Positions 37,001 to 48,767 of a DNA stretch of 64,000 nucleotides are shown in pieces. This DNA comes from Squalus acanthias (Eukaryota). The translations under genes and the position numbers were made by a program. Positions within the stretch are counted from its first letter, which is position 1; each line of letters starts with the position of its first letter. A model generated the notes under the pieces. It worked only from the letters and a program-made list of their open reading frames with translations. It had not been told where the DNA came from and made no database searches. The stretch covers positions 36,396,001 through 36,460,000 of the forward strand of contig CM059432.1 in assembly GCA_030390025.1 (NCBI GenBank), in the 5' to 3' direction.

Positions 37001-37686
37001 AACCTTTCACCATTTAAAAAATACTCTGATTTTCTATTTTTCCGACCAAAGTGAATAACTTCACATTTCTCCACATTATATTCCATTTACCATGTTCTTG
37101 CCCACTCACTTAGCCTGTCTATATCCCCTTGAATCCTCCTTGCATCCTCCTCACAACTTACATTCCCACCCAGCTTTGTATCATCAGCAAACTTGGATAT
37201 ATTACATTTGGTTCCCTCATCCAAATCATTGATGTAGATTGTGAATAGCTGAGGCCCAAGCACTGATCCTTGCGGTACCCCACTAGTTACAGCCTGCCAA
37301 CCCGAAAATGACCCGTTTATTCCTACTCTCTGTTTTCTGTCCGTTAACCAATCCTCAATCCATGCTAGTACATTACCCCCAATCCCATGAGCCCTAATTT
37401 TGTTTAATAACCTCTTGTGTGGCACCTTATCGAATGCCTTCTGAGAATCCAAATACACCACATCCACTGGTTCCCCCTTATTTATTCTGCTAGTTACAAC
37501 CTTAAAAACCTCTAACAGATTTGTCAAACACGATTTCCCTTTCATAAATTCGTGTTGACTCTGCCCAATCCGATTATTATTTTCTGAGTGCCCTGTTACC
37601 AAGTCGTCGTTAATATATTCTAGCATTTCCCTACTACTGATGTCAGGCTAACTGGTTTGTAGTGCCCCGTTTTCTCTCTCCCTCCT

Positions 37687-37880
37687 TGTCGTAAGAATGA
37701 GCCTTACGCGTGGTGAACTTAAAGTAAGCTTTAATCAACTAAAAAGGTGCTACATACAAAAGAGGTCTTACTCTATGCCTCTCCAGGATCCAACTGATCA
37801 GCCTAGTATTTATCCTGGACTAATCACAGGAAGTGATGCAATAAAGTTCGAGTCACAGGAAGCTGTATTGTGTTACCACA
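37687..37880 (-). repeat. 3' LTR
   Basis: 194 bp, identical to 41968-42161; preceded on the minus strand by the PPT. Confidence 0.95.
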
Positions 37881-37892
37881 TTCTCCCCCCCC
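37881..37892 (-). promoter_or_regulatory. Polypurine tract
   Basis: Minus strand GGGGGGGGAGAA directly abuts the TGTGG start of the 3' LTR. Confidence 0.9.
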
Positions 37893-38091
37893 AAAAGATT
37901 AGGAGGCCGGGATGAAGTTCGAGTCACAGGAAGCTGCATTGTGTTACCACATTCTCCCTCCATTTCGTAGCCGCTGGACGAGGGAGAGCCGCACCCGTTT
38001 GGGTTCTCGTAGCGGTAGAGGGCCCCTAGCCCGTTTACCAGCCGCGGGCCGTGGACCAGAGTCCGAGTGATCCAGCCCGCTCTGTGAGCGG

Positions 38092-41000
38092 TCAGGACTG
38101 ACTGTGTACTGGTGCCCGAACGGGTGTCGGGCAGGGCTGTGGCAGATCCGTTTCCGAGCGTATGGTACGGGGTGGATCGTGGCTGCGCGTGCGATCCCCG
38201 ACGGGCTGATAGTCAGTCTGCCCCAGGTCGGCACGCTGGAGTGAGGTACCAGCCGGCGTCAGATCCAGATCGTGATGAGAGGCACCTGGCGAGCCCAGAG
38301 ATGTGCCTGGTACAATATCATCCCCTGGTGTCCCTCTATGTTTCGGCGGGCAGGGAGCCAGATCCCGCAATGACACGGTAGATTCCCGACCGTCAGGATA
38401 CCGAATATAGGCGTAGGTAGGGTTGACGTCAGTGAGCTCAACCTCATCTACCAGGGGGTCATTCTTAGACGCCCGAACATATCTTCGGAGTAGCACTGGT
38501 CCCGGTGCAGTCAGCCACGACGGGAGAGATATCCCATAGGATGAGCGACGCTGAAATCGGAAGAACCGTTCATGAGGCGTCGTATTTGTGGCGGTCGAAA
38601 GGAGGGACCGTGTGGAGTGTAATGCGTCTGGAAGTACTGCTTCCCATTGCTGGTTGGGTAGGCCCCGAGATCTCAAAGCCAGACGTACCGCATTCCAGAT
38701 GATGGCGTTAAAACGCTCGACTTGCCCATTCCCGACCGGATGATAAGGCGTCGTTCTGCTGGCAGCAATACCCCGTTCCGAGAGATAGGCCTTGAGTTCT
38801 CCTGACATAAAAGAAGGGCCCCGATCCGAATGAACATAGGATGCCATGCCACAGAAAGCAAATACCTGCTCAAGGCAGCTGATAACCGTGGTCGTCAGCA
38901 TATTGGGGCAGGGAAAGGCAAACGGAAAACGGGAATACTCATCGACCATGGTCAATAGATAAGTGTTGCGAGTTGAAGAGGGCAACGGCCCCTTAAAATC
39001 GATGCTAAGCCGTTGCATTGGCTGGGTCGCATGTATGAGTATACCACCCGAGGGGCGGAAAAACTGAGGTTTCAATTCCGCACAGACTCTGCAGTCCGAG
39101 CACATCTTCTTTACATCCCCGGTAGAGAATGGGAGATTTCGAGACCGCACGAAGTGTAGCATGCGAGTAACGCCCGGATGACACAACCCATCATGGATGT
39201 CTACGAGCGTAGAGGGTGCCATGGCGGAGCAGAATGCTCGTGTGAGGGTATCCGGAGCCACATTCTCCTTGCCAGGTCGATAGTGGATGGTGTAACCAAA
39301 AGAGGCCAATTCCAGCCGCCAAAGCTGGATTTTATTATTTTTAATTTTGGTCCGTTTTCGATTATCGAGCATGAAGGCGACCGATCGCTGGTCCGTGATT
39401 AAGGTAAAGTGCTGGCGAGCTAGGAGATGAGTCCACTTCCATACTGCCTCTATGATGGCTGTAGCTTCTTTCTCGACTGGAGGATAATGTAGCTCAGCCC
39501 CTTGAAAAGTCCTGGACAAAAATGCCACCGGACGACCTTCCTGATTCAGAGTGGCCGAGATCGCCACCTCCGAGGCATCACACTCAACGACAAAAGGAAG
39601 ACTCTCATCGATGGAGTGAAGAGCCGCTTTCTCCAACTGTTTTTTCAGGAGGTTAAAGGCTGCAACAGCCGCTGTGCCTAGTGGGAATGTGCTGGCCTTC
39701 AGTAGAGGTTGGATTCGGTCCGAGAAGTTAGGAATCCATTTAGCATAGTATGCAAACAGGCCGAGGGCCCGGCGCAAGGAGGCCGGATTCTTAGGTGGCG
39801 GGAGTTCTTGGAGTGGGCGAAGCCTTTCAGGGTCAGGTTTAATGATGCCATTGCCCACACAATAGCCAAGGATGTTGATGGTTGGTTGTGACTTAATGGA
39901 TTTAGCCGCATTTAATGTCAAATTACGGTGCTGGAGTGCATCCCAAAATCGTTGGAGATTGGCGTCATGTTCCCGCTGATTGCGACCTGCGACAGTAATA
40001 TTGTCCAGATAAGGAAACTTATCCTTTAAGTCTTCCTGTTTGACCAGGTCATCCATTGCTCGCTGGAAGACAGCCACTCCATTAGTGACCCCAAAGGGGA
40101 GGCGACGAAATTGATACAGCCGTCCATTGGCTTCAAAGGCCGTATACTGCTTGTCTGAGACCTTCAAGGGTACCTGATGATAGGCACTTTTCAGATCATA
40201 TGTTGAGAACACCGTGTACTCAGCCAGTTTATTAACCATATCATCGATGCGCGGCAATGGGTATGCGTCCAAGTCCGTATATTGATTGATGGTCTGTGAA
40301 TAGTCAATGCACAGCCGTTTCTTGTGAGGTTGTAGAGGGTTCTTAACAATAACGACCTGGGCGCGCCATGGCGACGAACAAGGCTCGATGATATCCTCTG
40401 CTAAAAGCCGAGAAATCTCAGCCGCAATAAAAGACTGGTCTTCCTGACTGAAACGTCGTGACTTTGTTATAATCGGTTTGCATCGAGGAGGGATACTGGT
40501 AAACAGTGAGGGTTCATCCAGTGAAGCTGCTGACAATGCACAGAACGGTAATCGAGGTCGTATATTAGAAATAGTGAGTTCAGGTTTGGATCCGCCGAAC
40601 TCAATGGTGAGCTTCTTATGCTGCTTTTGAAAATCTAGCCCTAAGATAAGATCACTACATAAGTCCTTGAGCACCGAAAGCCGGGTGGAGGGATACCTGT
40701 GACCATTAAGTGTTATTTCAACCATACAAAAGCCAGAAATTCTGGTATTAAGTGATGACTGAGCCATCGCAATTGCCTGGTCCGATGGGAAAACATGTAG
40801 CTTTAACTCTGCAACAATCTGTTCCCTAATGAAACTATCAGTGCTACCTGAGTCAATTAAGGCATCTAAAGTATGTCCATTAATTGATGCTTTTGTAGCT
40901 GCATGGAATAGGTTCTGAGGACAAGCAGCTGTAATTGGTGTCGTTGCACAAAGAGTGGCTGAAACTCTAGGTGTGTTTCTTCGAGAGAAAACCCGAGAGG

Positions 41001-41889
41001 AAGCACGATAGATTTTAGCCGGAACATCTTGATAGGCCCTTACCGGGGCAGTTCGGTAGGACTTAGCTTGATAAGCCCTCGTAGAGGCTCTTGATAGGCA
41101 AACCTTTGCAAAATGACCCTTTTTGTTGCAATGACTGCAAAACGCATTGCGAGCAGGGCAGAATTTCCGAGGGTGAAACTCATCACCACAAAAGAAGCAT
41201 TTCTTAGATTGCCAAGAGGCTGCCACAGTGGGGTCATCATCCTCTTCATCAGTGAAGTCATCAGATTGATCGTCAGGGATAAAGTCCTCCCTAATAGAGT
41301 TCACCTGTGGCCTCTTAAATTGCCTGACTGTAGTTAAGGCAGCAGACCGAGGTCTGGGCACTGTATAAAGGTCTGCATTTCTTTTTGCCAGATCTAGAGA
41401 GCAAGCCATGTCATAAGCTCTCTGAAGCTCAAGTGTCTTACTTTCCAGTAGACGCTGGCGTATAAATGGGGAGGCAAGCCCGCAGATGAAAGCATCACGG
41501 ATCATTTCTTCACGGTACAGCTCAGCTGAGGCCGCCTGAAAGTTACAGTCCATACTAAGTCTGCGAAGCTCTTGGAGGAATTTATCAATGGATTCCTCCG
41601 GCCCTTGTTGGGCTGTAGCTAGTAGATGTCTGGCATAGACCTCATTCGGTGTCTTAGTATATAGTCTTTTAAGCGTCCGAATTGCCTCCTCGTAACTGCC
41701 CCATTCCTCGACATACTGAAATACATTCGGGGTGACACAGTTGATGAGTATCCGCAATTTTGAGTCATCATCAGCCTTGCAATATTCGAGAAAATTGTCA
41801 AACGTGCGATACCAGTGTTTCCACACCTTACCGGCTGCTGGGGTGTTTGGGTCCAAGTCAAGACGCGATGGTTTAAGGATGTTTTCCAT
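38092..41889 (-). CDS. Gag-Pol polyprotein (Gag with two zinc knuckles, aspartic protease, RT, RNase H, integrase), 1265 aa
   Basis: CFFC..H..C and CSHC..GH..C knuckles; LIDSGS; RLCIDY, YPLPRID, DLKSAYHQ, LPFG, YLDN; ECDAS, EKEA, TDQRS; HHCC plus IDFKGP/SDRG/VERFN (D,D,E). Confidence 0.95.
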   Translation of the reverse strand: MENILKPSRLDLDPNTPAAGKVWKHWYRTFDNFLEYCKADDDSKLRILINCVTPNVFQYVEEWGSYEEAIRTLKRLYTKTPNEVYARHLLATAQQGPEESIDKFLQELRRLSMDCNFQAASAELYREEMIRDAFICGLASPFIRQRLLESKTLELQRAYDMACSLDLAKRNADLYTVPRPRSAALTTVRQFKRPQVNSIREDFIPDDQSDDFTDEEDDDPTVAASWQSKKCFFCGDEFHPRKFCPARNAFCSHCNKKGHFAKVCLSRASTRAYQAKSYRTAPVRAYQDVPAKIYRASSRVFSRRNTPRVSATLCATTPITAACPQNLFHAATKASINGHTLDALIDSGSTDSFIREQIVAELKLHVFPSDQAIAMAQSSLNTRISGFCMVEITLNGHRYPSTRLSVLKDLCSDLILGLDFQKQHKKLTIEFGGSKPELTISNIRPRLPFCALSAASLDEPSLFTSIPPRCKPIITKSRRFSQEDQSFIAAEISRLLAEDIIEPCSSPWRAQVVIVKNPLQPHKKRLCIDYSQTINQYTDLDAYPLPRIDDMVNKLAEYTVFSTYDLKSAYHQVPLKVSDKQYTAFEANGRLYQFRRLPFGVTNGVAVFQRAMDDLVKQEDLKDKFPYLDNITVAGRNQREHDANLQRFWDALQHRNLTLNAAKSIKSQPTINILGYCVGNGIIKPDPERLRPLQELPPPKNPASLRRALGLFAYYAKWIPNFSDRIQPLLKASTFPLGTAAVAAFNLLKKQLEKAALHSIDESLPFVVECDASEVAISATLNQEGRPVAFLSRTFQGAELHYPPVEKEATAIIEAVWKWTHLLARQHFTLITDQRSVAFMLDNRKRTKIKNNKIQLWRLELASFGYTIHYRPGKENVAPDTLTRAFCSAMAPSTLVDIHDGLCHPGVTRMLHFVRSRNLPFSTGDVKKMCSDCRVCAELKPQFFRPSGGILIHATQPMQRLSIDFKGPLPSSTRNTYLLTMVDEYSRFPFAFPCPNMLTTTVISCLEQVFAFCGMASYVHSDRGPSFMSGELKAYLSERGIAASRTTPYHPVGNGQVERFNAIIWNAVRLALRSRGLPNQQWEAVLPDALHSTRSLLSTATNTTPHERFFRFQRRSSYGISLPSWLTAPGPVLLRRYVRASKNDPLVDEVELTDVNPTYAYIRYPDGRESTVSLRDLAPCPPKHRGTPGDDIVPGTSLGSPGASHHDLDLTPAGTSLQRADLGQTDYQPVGDRTRSHDPPRTIRSETDLPQPCPTPVRAPVHSQS

Positions 41890-41967
41890 GATGGGTGATT
41901 CCCTGGATCCTTAGTTCCGAGTTCGTCCAAAAAGTTTGAGTGCGAAGTTTTTCAAAGTTGATTAAAT

Positions 41968-42161
41968 TGTCGTAAGAATGAGCCTTACGCGTGGTGAACT
42001 TAAAGTAAGCTTTAATCAACTAAAAAGGTGCTACATACAAAAGAGGTCTTACTCTATGCCTCTCCAGGATCCAACTGATCAGCCTAGTATTTATCCTGGA
42101 CTAATCACAGGAAGTGATGCAATAAAGTTCGAGTCACAGGAAGCTGTATTGTGTTACCACA
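41968..42161 (-). repeat. 5' LTR
   Basis: 194 bp; the minus strand has TATA-like GATAAATA at LTR position 67-74 and ATTAAA at 146-151. Confidence 0.95.
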
Positions 42162-44427
42162 CTCCTTTCTTAAATAGTGGGGTTACATTTGCCACCTTCC
42201 AATCCACGGGAACCGTTCTAGAATCTATGGAATTTTGGAAAATGACAACCAATGCATCCACTACCTCTATAGCCACCTCTTTCAAAACCCTCGGATGTAG
42301 GCCATCGGGTCCAGAGGATTTATCGGCTTTCAGTCCCATTAATTTCTCCAGTACTATTTTTTTGCTAATAATTTCTTACAGTTCCTCATTCTTGCGAGAG
42401 CCCTGGTTCTCCACTATTTCCGGGAAGGCAGGCACAAAGTATTTGTTTAATTTCTCTGCCATTTCCTTATTCCCCATTATAATTTCTCCTGTCTCCGCCT
42501 GTAAGGGACCCACATTTACTTTCGCTAATCTTTTCCTTTTTACATACCTATAGAAGCTTTTACAGTCTTTTTATATCTCTCGCTAGTTTACTCTCATTCT
42601 GTTTTCCCTTTCTTTATCAATTTCTTGGTCCTCCTTTGCTGAATTCTAAAATCCTCCCAATCCTCAGGCTTACTACTCTTTTTGGCAACATTATAAGCCT
42701 CTTCCTTTGATCTAATACTATCTTTTACTTCTTGTTAGCCACGGTTGGACCACTTTTTCTATGGGGTTTTTGTGCCTTAAATGAATGTATATTTGTTGTA
42801 AATTATGTATTAATTCTTTAAATGCTAGCCATTGCTTGTCTACCCTCATACCTTTTAATGTAATTTCCCAATCTACCTTAGCCAACTCGCCCCTCATACC
42901 TATGTAGTTTGCTTTGTTTAGATTTAAGACCCTAGTTTCGGATTTAACTAAATCACTTTCAAACTCAATATAAATTCCACAGAAACTATTTCCACTGGTT
43001 GGGGATTCTCGGACTAGGGGGCATAGTCTAAAAATTAGAGCCAGACCTTTCAGGAGTGAAATTAGGAAGCACTTCTACACACAGAGGCTGGTAGAAGTTT
43101 GGAACTTTTCCGCAAACAACAATTGATGCTAGATCAATTAATTTTAAATCGGAGGTTGATAGCTTTCTGTTAACCAAAGGTATTTAGGGATGTGGCCCAA
43201 AGGCGGTATATGGAGTTAAGTCGCAGATCAGCCATGATCTCATTGAATGGTGGAGCTGGCTTGAGGGGCTGAATGACCTACTCCTGTTCCTATGTTCCTG
43301 CATGAAGCTAGACCTGGACAACATCCAAGCTTGGGCTGATAAGTGGCAAGTAACTTTCATGCCACACAAGTGCCAGGCAATGACCATCTCTAACATCAGA
43401 GAGCCTAACCACCTCCTCATGACATTCAATGCCATTAACATTGCCGAGGCCTCCAACATCCTGGGGGGGGGGGGGGGGGGGGAGGTCACCATTGAGCCAA
43501 AGCTCAACTGGACCAGCCACATAAATGCTGTGGCTACTAGAGCTGGTTAGAAACTGGGTATTCTGCAGTGAGTGAATCACCTACTGACTTTCCAAGGCCT
43601 CTCCACCATCCATAAGGCACAATTTAGGAGTGTGATGGAATAGTTTCCATTGCCTGGATGGGTGCAGCTGCAGCACCACTCGACGGTAGACACCATCCAG
43701 GAACAAAGCAGTCTTGCTTGATCAGCAGCCCAGCCACTACCAACGCACCGTGGCTGCAGAGGGTACTATCTATAGGATGCACTGCAGCAATTCACCAAGC
43801 CCCCCTCAAAGCAGCGACCACCACCACCACCTAGAAGGACAAGGGCAGCAAGTGCATGGGAACACCATCACCTCCAGGTTCTCCTCCAAGTCACGCATCA
43901 GCTGCTTGGATATATATCGCCATTCTTTCATTGTCGCCGGGTCAAGATCCTGGAACTCTCTACCTAACGGTATTGTGGGAGTACCTTCACCACGCAGACT
44001 AACGGTTCAAGAAGGCGGCTCACCACTACCCTCTCGTGGGCAACTAGGGATGAGCAATAAATGCTGGGTTTGCCAGCGATGCCCACATTCCGAGAATGAA
44101 TAAAGAAATTGTTTTAAATAAATCTAAACCTTTCTCAAGTGTTTGGCTTGTGCTTTTCCATTTGTTAACTGCCAGAAAAAATTGATCTTTGGAAACTGCA
44201 AAAAAATTCAGCACTTCAAGGGTTAAGTTATTCTGGAGACCAACATCCATCTTCCCTTTGCAGTCATTTATAATGGAAGTTTTCAGGTCATCTTTGCACT
44301 GCAGTTGCTATTTTTAGAATGCAATTTTCTCTGTCTGTCTTTTTTTCCCCCACTGAGTGCTTTGTGCAATACACCAAAGCTTCTCTGCAGTGGCTGAGCT
44401 TGCTTTAACTAGTTGAGTACTGCAATC

Positions 44428-46141: not shown

Positions 46142-48762
46142 AACATAGAAACATAGAAGATAGGAGCAGGAGTAGGCCATTCGGCCCCTCGAGCCTGCTC
46201 TGCCATTCGATGAGATCATGGCTGATCATCCAAACTCAGTACCCTGTCCCTGCCTTCTCCCCATATCCCTTGATACCTTTAGCCTTAAGAAATATATCTA
46301 ACTCCTTCTTGAATATATTTACTGACTTGGCCTCAACTGCCTTCTGTGGTAGAGAATTCCACAGGTTCACCACCCTCTGGGTGAAGAAATTCCTCCTCAT
46401 CTCTGTCCTAAATGGCTTACCCCTTATCTTTACACTGTGACCTCTTGTTCTGGACTCACCCGCCATCGGGAACATCCTTCCTGCATCCAGTCTGTCTAGC
46501 CCTGTTAGAATTTTATAAGTTTCAATGAGATCTCCTCTCATTCTTCTAAACTCCAGCGAGTATAAGCCCAATCGACCCAATCGCTCCTCGTACGTCATTT
46601 CTGCCATCCCAGGTATCAGTCTGGTGAATCTTCGCTGTACACCCTCCATGGCAAGAACATCCTTCCTCAGATAAGGCGACCAAAACGGCACACAATACTC
46701 AAGGTGTGGTCTCACCAAGGGCCTGTACAGCTGCAGCAAGACATCCTGTTCCTGTACTCAAACCCTCTCGCTACGAAGGCCAACATACCATTTGCCTTCT
46801 TAACCGCCTGCTGTACCTGCATGCTTACCTTCAGCGACTGGTGCACAAGGACACCCAGGTCTCGTTGCACTTCCCCTTCTCCCAATCTATTGCCGTTCAG
46901 ATAATAATCTGCCTTTCTGTTTTTGCCACCAAAGTGGATAACCTCGCATTTATCCACATTATACTGCATCTGCCATGCTTCTGCCCAATCACCCAACCTG
47001 TCCAAATCATACTGGAGTTTCTCGGCATCCTCCTCGCAGCGCACACGCCCACCCAGCTTTGTGTCGTCTGCAAACTTGGAGATATTACATCTAGTTCCCT
47101 CATCTAGATCATTAATATATATATATATAGTGAATAGCTGGGGTCCTAGGACCGATCCCTGCGGAACCCCACTAGTCACTGCCTGCCACTCGGAAAAAGA
47201 CCCGTTTATTCCAACTCTTTGCTTCCTGTCTGCCAACCAGTTCTCTATCCAAGTCAGTACCTTGCCCCCAATCCCATGTGCCTTAACTTTACGCGCTAAT
47301 CTCTTATGTGGGACCTTATCGAAAGCCTTCTGAAAGTCCAAATACACCACATCCACTGGTTCTCCCTTATCTATTCTATCAGTTACATCCTCAAAAGATT
47401 CCAGTAGATTAGTCAAGCACGATTTACCTTTTGTAAATCCATGTTGACTTTGTCCAATCCTGTCACTGTTTTCCAAGTGCTCTGCCATTACATCTTTTAT
47501 AATGGACTCTAGCATTTTCCCCACAACCGATGTCAGGCTTACCGGTCTATAATTCCCCGTTTTTTCTTTACCACCTTTTTTGAACAGTGGGGTAACATTA
47601 GCTACCCTCCAATCCATGGGAACTATTCCAGAGTCTATAGAATTTTGGAAGATGACCAGCAATGCATCTACTATTTCTAGGGCCACTTCCTTAAGTACCC
47701 TAGGATGTAGATTATCAGGCTCTGGGGATTTATCGGCCGTCAATTTCCCTAACACCATTTCCCTACAAATACTGATTTCATTCAGTTCCTCCCTCTCATT
47801 AGACTCTATGTTCCCCGACATCTCTGGGAGGTTATTTGTGTTCTCCTTTGTGAAGACAGAGCCAAAGTATGTATTTAATTGGTCTGCCATTTCTTTGTTC
47901 CCCATTATAAATTCCCCTGATTCTGACTGCAAGGGACCTACGCTTGACTTCACCAATCTTTTTCTCTTCACATATTTATAAAAGCTTTTACAGTCAGTTT
48001 TTATGTTCCCTGCAAGCTTACGCTCGTACTCTATTTTCCCCCTCTTAATTAATCCCTTTGTCCTCCTTTGCTGAATCCTAAACTGCTCCCAATCCTCAGG
48101 TTTACTGCTTTTTCTGGCCAATTTATATGTCCTCTCCTTGGATCTTATGCTATCCCTGATTTCCCTTGTCAGCCATGGTTGAGTCACCTTTTTTGTTTTA
48201 TTTTTATGCCAGACAGGGATGAACAAATTCTGTAGTTCATCCATGCGGTCTTTGAATGTTTGCCATTGCCTATCCACCGTCAACCCTTTGAGTAACATTC
48301 CCCAATCTATCCTACCCAACTCGCGCCTCATACCATCGTAATTTCCTTTATTTAAATTCAGGACCCTAGTCTTTGAGTCAACTATTTCATTCTCCATCTT
48401 AATGAAGAATTCGATCATATTATGATCGCTCCGCCCCAAGGAGCCCCGCACAAAAAGATTGATAATTAATCCTTTCCCGTTACATAATACCCAGTCTAAG
48501 ATGACCTGGTCTCTAGTTGGTTCCTCGACATATTGGTCCAGGAAACCATCCCGTATACACTCCAGGAATTCCTCCTCCACAGTATTGTTACTAATTTGGT
48601 TAGCCCAATCTATATGTAGATTAAAGTCACCCATGATAACTGCTGTGACCTTATTGCACGCGTCTCTAATTTCCTGTTTAATGCCATCCTCAACCTCTGC
48701 ATTACTGTTTGGGGGTCTGTATACCACTCCCACTAACGTTTTCTGCCCCTTGGTATTTCTCA
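46142..48762 (-). mobile_element. Relatively young CR1 LINE, 5'-truncated; 673-aa open ORF2 segment plus frameshifted C-terminus
   Basis: GVVYRPP, MGDFN, SDHN (APE); [33 protein letters not shown] (RT); continues in 46236-46739. Confidence 0.95.
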
Positions 48763-48767
48763 GTTAT

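Follow-up and report, generated by a model that had tools for sequence, protein, structure and literature searches.

A putative self-primed clade of Ty3/Gypsy retrotransposons in animals, represented by a young element family of Squalus acanthias

The Ty3/Gypsy element located in the window, i.e. the whole stretch of 64,000 nt of Squalus acanthias DNA that was analysed, very probably primes reverse transcription in a Tf1-like manner with the RNA of its own LTR, after a cut inside ATTAAA at the end of a duplex between LTR and primer site. Self-priming, as suggested in a first-pass annotation of the sequence, is supported by covariation of the primer site with the LTR across families, by aberrant copies according to which the minus strand stops where the paired segment ends (LTR position 151), by primer copies of self type, and by 1810 self-type against 0 tRNA-Ile-type primer sites.

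The element and the predicted pairing

The element is an LTR retrotransposon of the Ty3/Gypsy type (4475 nt, minus strand), with TG...CA LTRs, a target-site duplication (TSD), a polypurine tract (PPT) and the domain order PR-RT-RH-IN (Table 1). The LTRs showed 0 mismatches in 194 nt, and among solved structures the RT was nearest to that of Ty3 (E 3e-47). Two Cys/His knuckle motifs were read from the sequence of the gag-pol frame. From stop to stop the window frame (38092-41910) has 1272 aa, when most young copies have 1323-1325 aa, and the window copy is accordingly broken near the 3′-end of the frame. No chromodomain match was obtained behind the integrase in the window protein or in three relatives, in a comparison where the window frame was shorter than the frames of most copies. 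Extra copies of the purine tract and LTR start were present upstream of the true PPT, two in the sub-lineage of the window and three in the closest metagenome relative (window 37912-37961; L255; L031). The element is surrounded by a LINE copy with an RT domain (37087-37647 and 42164-42731), which resembles an endonuclease-RT LINE at 46712-48763.

Table 1. Features of the element in the window; positions are those of the whole stretch.
Feature	Position	Strand	Remarks
5′ LTR, 194 nt, TG...CA	41968..42161	-	
3′ LTR, identical to 5′ LTR	37687..37880	-	No pairing partner behind 3′ LTR
Target-site duplication AGGAG, 5 bp	42162..42166	-	Other copy 37682-37686
TATA-like GATAAATA, LTR 67-74	42088..42095	-	Aligned by position and flanks with TATAAATA of two sister families
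Probable transcript start, LTR 96-98	42064..42066	-	TATA +30; end of inverted tract in L348 (n=1)
Paired segment, LTR 141-151; putative 3′ part of self-primer	42011..42021	-	Contains ATTAAA (42016-42011)
Putative RNA cut, LTR 150/151	42011..42012	-	Minus strong-stop DNA would end at 151
Hairpin directly 3′ of paired segment	41998..42010	-	
Second hairpin, in U5	41971..41989	-	
Predicted primer-binding site TTTAATCAACT, 1 nt behind 5′ LTR	41956..41966	-	
Single gag-pol frame: protease, RT, RNase H, integrase	38092..41889	-	
Extra purine tract and LTR-start copy	37912..37961	-	Sub-lineage: window copy and 1/5 others
Polypurine tract	37881..37892	-	

The terminal CA of the 5′ LTR is followed by one A (41967) and then by TTTAATCAACT (41966-41956), which is the exact complement of AGTTGATTAAA (42021-42011, LTR 141-151), with 44 nt between the two. 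The structural claims of the first-pass annotation held on inspection. The 11-mer was complementary to LTR 141-151 base for base; TGG was missing behind the 5′ LTR, and with no TGG within the first bases no tRNA 3′-CCA end is able to pair; the pairing partner was found only after the 5′ LTR, none being located behind the 3′ LTR; and the two small hairpins proposed between the paired arms were both present in the minimum free energy (MFE) fold, where the 11-bp helix closes a three-way fold with them.

The predicted fold had z-scores of -3.64 for a 66-nt piece (1 of 200 shuffles as good) and -3.33 for a 91-nt piece. A 141-nt piece was no better than shuffles (z = -0.03), with the helix still included in its MFE and centroid structures. 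Pair probability of the helix was 0.91-0.92 in contexts starting at LTR 98, 121 or 141, and none of 2000 shuffles of the upstream 130 nt yielded an 11-bp run. In the predicted folds of most relatives a helix began at or near the equivalent of the 41998-42010 hairpin. Comparison with Rfam gave no match.

The junction of LTR end and primer site, as in the window, was identified at 1810 genomic places with a self-type site (family A). All 150 scored RT matches in the genome were 99-100% identical, which together with the 1810 junction copies indicates a young family. Family C is a sister family in the same genome with 82% RT identity. Insertions were often preceded by AG (about 23 of the 30 best-matching loci, L001-L030 with flanks L287-L316, a set biased towards the flank of the window), and three junctions 4247 nt apart (G000:C1:566502-575030) form a tandem array, in which the elements apparently share LTRs. 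Related proteins with E ≤ 1e-50 numbered 1443 of the 8000 scored. The named relatives were from shrimp, copepod, nematode, cnidarians, mussel, tunicate and shark, and catshark was the only named vertebrate relative among the 120 proteins listed. No relatives were found among viral contigs, and the ESM Atlas returned generic RT clusters only.

Covariation of primer site and LTR across the clade

From 564 metagenome relatives the best 80 were kept, and 28 of these had a readable junction of LTR and leader. Two others, L047 (split over contig ends) and L052 (shifted register), showed pairing of 13 and 15 bp outside the 28, and the 5′-end was absent from the remaining relatives of the best 80. Seven near-duplicates (L034, L037, L038, L055, L060, L082, L093) were left out and the three families of the own genome were added, resulting in 24 rows with an RT identity of 43-82% to the window.

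Compensatory changes between the post-LTR 11-mer and the LTR, proposed as a check in the first-pass annotation, were found in these related families. Over 12 positions the 24 primer sites formed on average 11.6 pairs with their own LTR and 8.6 with other LTRs, when the maximum in 100,000 permutations was 9.96. At least 11 of the 12 positions were paired with the own LTR in 22 rows, and pairing beyond 11 bp extended for a mean of 3.0 nt in own against 0.63 nt in cross comparisons (19 rows). Site positions 4-9 were variable yet paired; positions 2 and 10 were invariant, with G at position 10 in 24/24 rows. The helix is 10-19 bp long where unbroken, closes 21-68 nt, and begins 1 nt behind the LTR in 24/24 rows, the LTR end being fixed by the LTR pair in 14 rows and set from the CA before the helix, i.e. 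not independently of the helix, in 10. The 24 rows are related to one another, but sister rows on supported branches differed on both sides (L033/L059, L035/L036, L066/L090 and L031/window).

At closer range, L033 and L093 (99% identical, 38 of 3592 aligned bases differing) were separated by a change which was present in both LTRs and matched in the primer site, the one-step product that would be expected from copying of the primer. Mismatches in the 5′ LTR of L084 and L090 were absent from their 3′ LTR. Perfect pairing is not strictly kept, because three family C insertions with different flanks had a common primer site with 2 mismatches to the LTR, and L034 and L038 had one mismatch each. 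Within the family, a matching LTR change was present in 0 of 29 copies with an altered primer site, a count which is uninformative, as most site variants probably arose after insertion. In the leader of L040, a 17-nt piece of U3 was repeated directly behind an 18-bp pairing, and L046 contained two copies of its primer site.

Aberrant copies, the candidate cut and alternative explanations

A degenerate search was conducted for junctions where the primer site continues as inverted upstream LTR. Loci with LTR end, A, site and inverted upstream LTR were identified in family C (15), family A (2) and family B (3, representing 2 events), in total about 19 events, and in all fold-back junctions the primer site was of self type. 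Such junctions were far commoner in family C (15 loci, when roughly a quarter of the 877 junctions of B and C belong to C) than in family A, with 2 against about 1900, and in family B, with 3 loci.

Four family C copies (class I) comprised the full LTR, A, site and inverted U3. Three of these were closed by TSDs (two exact, one mismatched), and had accordingly been integrated as palindromic cDNA. Six solo-like copies (class II, TSD exact in five), found through a different junction, had an inverted U5/R of 47 nt, T (five) or TTT (one), a short sense U5, A, site and inverted U3, with the stop 1 nt into the paired segment in five and 3 nt in one. On sequence grounds, class II is read as strong-stop DNA which would have stopped 1 nt inside the paired segment and then, after folding back on itself, would have used its own primer as template; a template switch during plus-strand synthesis is also a possible route. 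Class III (L326, L329, L331, L332 and L334; TSD exact in four) starts at an internal TG, which precedes the paired segment by 11 nt, and ends at the inverted U3 start; this DNA end agrees with neither the TATA-based start nor the cut site. In family B, at three loci (two events), the site continued into inverted U3, PPT and interior. In family A, both LTRs of L348 and L349 were deleted between a 5-nt microhomology (LTR 17-21 and 151-155), which we read as a first-transfer error.

A further search for breaks covered LTR 151-166 and required non-A at LTR 149-150. It produced 14 matches, equal to 11 loci or pairs, and owing to this range and requirement some junctions were missed, e.g. one at the other 6-nt microhomology. 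In three elements of different sub-lineages both LTRs were joined at 151 through AGC (3-nt microhomology), and in the solo-like L367 and L368 (TSD clear in one) the U3 end plus TT was joined to 151 without microhomology. A break at 151 in L364 was set aside as it was present in one LTR only. Five breaks were located elsewhere, at least three of them in one LTR only. The minus strong-stop end was placed at the last A of the segment (window 42011), or in a microhomology of 3-5 nt starting there, in 12 of 13 independent events, and 2 nt further in the remaining one.

A primer consisting of LTR 141-150 and a template beginning at 151 would have their simplest single cause in one cut between the two, as in Tf1. 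According to the proposed mechanism, the RNA would fold LTR 141-151 onto the primer site and would be cut between A150 and A151, by analogy with Tf1 by the RNase H of the element, after which the 5′ piece would be extended through U5 and R up to A151. The resulting strong-stop DNA would then jump to the 3′ R, which would be about 15-30 nt long given a hexamer ending at the cut. Plus-strand synthesis would copy the primer and rebuild the site, normally stopping after about 12-14 bases, and both cDNA ends would carry 2 extra bases. A primer ending at A150 would leave 2 nt beyond the CA of U5, matching the 2 nt beyond the U3 end in L367 and L368. Poly(A) sites are located 10-30 nt behind the hexamer, and with a hexamer ending at the cut the site would be placed at a distance of 10-30 nt into what remains of R. 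This length would suffice for strand transfer and may explain the overlap of hexamer and cut.

The commonest local variation was right behind the paired stretch, at site positions 14-15 in families A and B. Positions 14 and 15 varied in 4 and 1 of 19 B loci and in 1 and 10 of 30 A loci, respectively, and position 15 had 14 variants in family B. This variation would be in line with the plus-strand transfer point, and the position-15 variant of family A may be a single mutation of a sub-lineage. L286 and L339 had internal deletions that begin immediately after the part of the primer site which is paired.

The TATA-like motif, estimated at about 70 nt before the paired site in the first-pass annotation, was at a distance of 74 nt (LTR 67-74 and 141). 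The TATA boxes precede the paired segment by 74 nt in family A and 90-92 nt in families B and C, which indicates that the primer probably has a long 5′ extension. As also suspected earlier, the paired site is probably not the transcript start: TATA +30 corresponds to LTR 97, and the inverted tract of L348, reaching from LTR 151 to 96-98 and missing from its own LTRs, ends 30 nt behind the TATA-like box. The tract of L349 continues to LTR 32, so the skipped 3′ RNA is also usable as template, and L348 gives only a hint of the start. TATA spacing and this one informative copy put the probable RNA start about 45 nt before the duplex. A transcript start near LTR 97, with a primer RNA about 54 nt long, of which the last 10 bases would be paired, is the arrangement towards which we lean slightly. 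Five family C copies ended 11 nt upstream of the paired segment and not at TATA +30, which would point to a start 11-13 nt upstream. Contigs of eight possibly-RNA runs over the stretch contained no starts, ends or poly(A) tails, and one raw-read run had 0 reads on the stretch. Retrocopies with a poly(A) tail and an end 0-22 nt behind LTR 164 were not found, and among 796 LTR matches there were no recombinants of subfamilies A1 and A2 across LTR 141-158, which were meant to map R.

The stop at 151 and the self-type primer copies would be explained equally well if transcription started at LTR 151, the 5′-end remained uncut, and the 3′-LTR copy of the segment, on the same or a second RNA, acted as primer. 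In L323 and L353-L355 the site had indeed been annealed to the 3′-LTR copy and extended through U3 and the purine tract. This scheme is nevertheless improbable, since the A at 151 follows another A and no TATA is present at -30, when a TATA-like box is located 30 nt before LTR 97, since start and cut sites would have to coincide, and since R, which is needed for strand transfer, would be lost on cutting of the 3′ copy.

The first-pass annotation had also proposed that the same fold blocks premature polyadenylation. Masking of the signal only at the 5′-end was reproduced in the predicted fold, with an unpaired probability of the hexamer of 0.05 in the 5′ context and 0.38-0.50 in the 3′ context, and in 15 of the 24 rows the last bases of the paired segment are ATTAAA or AATAAA. 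The proposal did not extend to the other nine rows, where the helix lacks a canonical hexamer; that of L035 and L039 is located outside the helix. On the modelled folds, hiding of the 5′ ATTAAA might be a side benefit of the helix in some families, although we lean mildly against it. A helix that serves solely to hide the poly(A) signal, when another RNA primes, is very improbable: the helix is kept in the nine rows, its start, 1 nt behind the LTR, is at the position required of a primer, and the breaks at 151 would be left unexplained.

Least probable, and largely refuted, is priming in trans by a 5′ fragment of tRNA-Ile(AAT) ending in the D-arm: a match to a host tRNA fragment, named in the first-pass annotation as evidence against self-priming, does exist, as host tRNA-Ile(AAT) genes pair with all 11 bases (9 Watson-Crick and 2 G-U) with a predicted duplex energy close for the window family (-9.8 vs -10.3 kcal/mol) and better for family C, but the match was chosen after the fact (the other screen, with ARAGORN, comprised 44 sequences, mostly Lys and Cys), the tRNA-type site left no imprint in any copy of the three families, pairing is mismatch-free in 10/24 rows (14 with mismatch) against 20/24 with the own LTR, and no reason is given for the stop at 151. 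The commonest paired motif of the clade resembles the D-arm of host tRNA-Ile(AAT) (9/11 identical; L213, L215, L216), either by chance or as a relic of an older primer.

Significance and comparison with known systems

Self-priming has been demonstrated experimentally in fission-yeast Tf1, with whose relatives it is usually associated. Its signature is here present in a large and very active animal clade, with at least 1443 related proteins and thousands of near-identical copies in one vertebrate genome, and annotation based on the PBS will miss such elements. New in this material are the integrated reverse-transcription accidents. The main interest is in the record of the cut that these would provide, down to the base, and in a primer which is probably internal. 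The aberrant copies lead to predictions at base level, i.e. a cut at LTR 150/151, 2-nt cDNA ends and possibly a long primer, and such copies represent a general way of reading priming mechanisms from genomes alone. In the broadest reading, a widespread animal Gypsy clade unrelated to Tf1/sushi may have evolved self-priming on its own, with a long capped leader as primer that is cut internally inside the poly(A) hexamer, one helix acting as both primer duplex and 5′ poly(A) mask, primer copying keeping the site matched to the LTR, and accidents recording the cut to the base; we hold the balance for this combination to be nearly even, tipping marginally against it.

Mag and Cigr-1 are short elements with one gag-pol frame and paired knuckles, and Mag and SURL are primed by tRNA. 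The present element has a marine-animal range like that of the Mag lineage, and may be affiliated with Mag or Cigr-1. The Repbase name "Selfy" presumably stands for self-primed animal Gypsy elements, which may be this clade; if so, the basic pairing signature may already be annotated in Repbase. In the papers searched, neither the word "Selfy" together with Gypsy nor a report of self-priming in this clade was found. The passages available from PMC5006619, PMC3601003, PMC6934838, PMC10886601, PMC3587641, PMC8556966, PMC6238403 and PMC12440569 do not mention it, and those of the clade surveys PMC6238403 and PMC8556966 contain no PBS passage. In supplement file 1 of PMC6238403, Cigr-1 is listed under Mag (A, B, C clades).

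In PMC7175516, PMC4600332 and PMC5341516, Tf1/Tf2 of Schizosaccharomyces pombe and Tj1 of S. japonicus are described as lacking a tRNA site and having a primer site complementary to their own 5′ LTR, and in Tf1 pairing is by the first 11 bases, with the RNase H cut located between bases 11 and 12. The present element is similar to these in having no tRNA site and a primer site complementary to its own 5′ LTR, kept by covariation, and similar to Tf1 in a template RNA that would end at the 3′ edge of the paired segment, 12/13 aberrant events being compatible with LTR 151 or its equivalent. Unlike in Tf1, the duplex is 10-19 bp and not fixed at 11, with a loop of 21-68 nt, it is probably internal to the RNA instead of formed by its first bases, and the cut would be located within the poly(A) hexamer, 1 nt inside the duplex. 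Unlike the Tf1/sushi group, the element has no chromodomain match, two Cys/His knuckle motifs, and hosts among animals of several phyla; by the chromodomain it would not belong to the Tf1/sushi lineage. Self-priming has also been predicted from complementarity in plant Tcn1 chromoviruses and in TAR (Houba, Osr-1) Copia elements (PMC6317226, as far as available), and thus occurs as a prediction outside one lineage. The present case is likewise based on complementarity, and differs in lineage and hosts; the passages of PMC6317226 on the plant elements give no cut site or intermediates.
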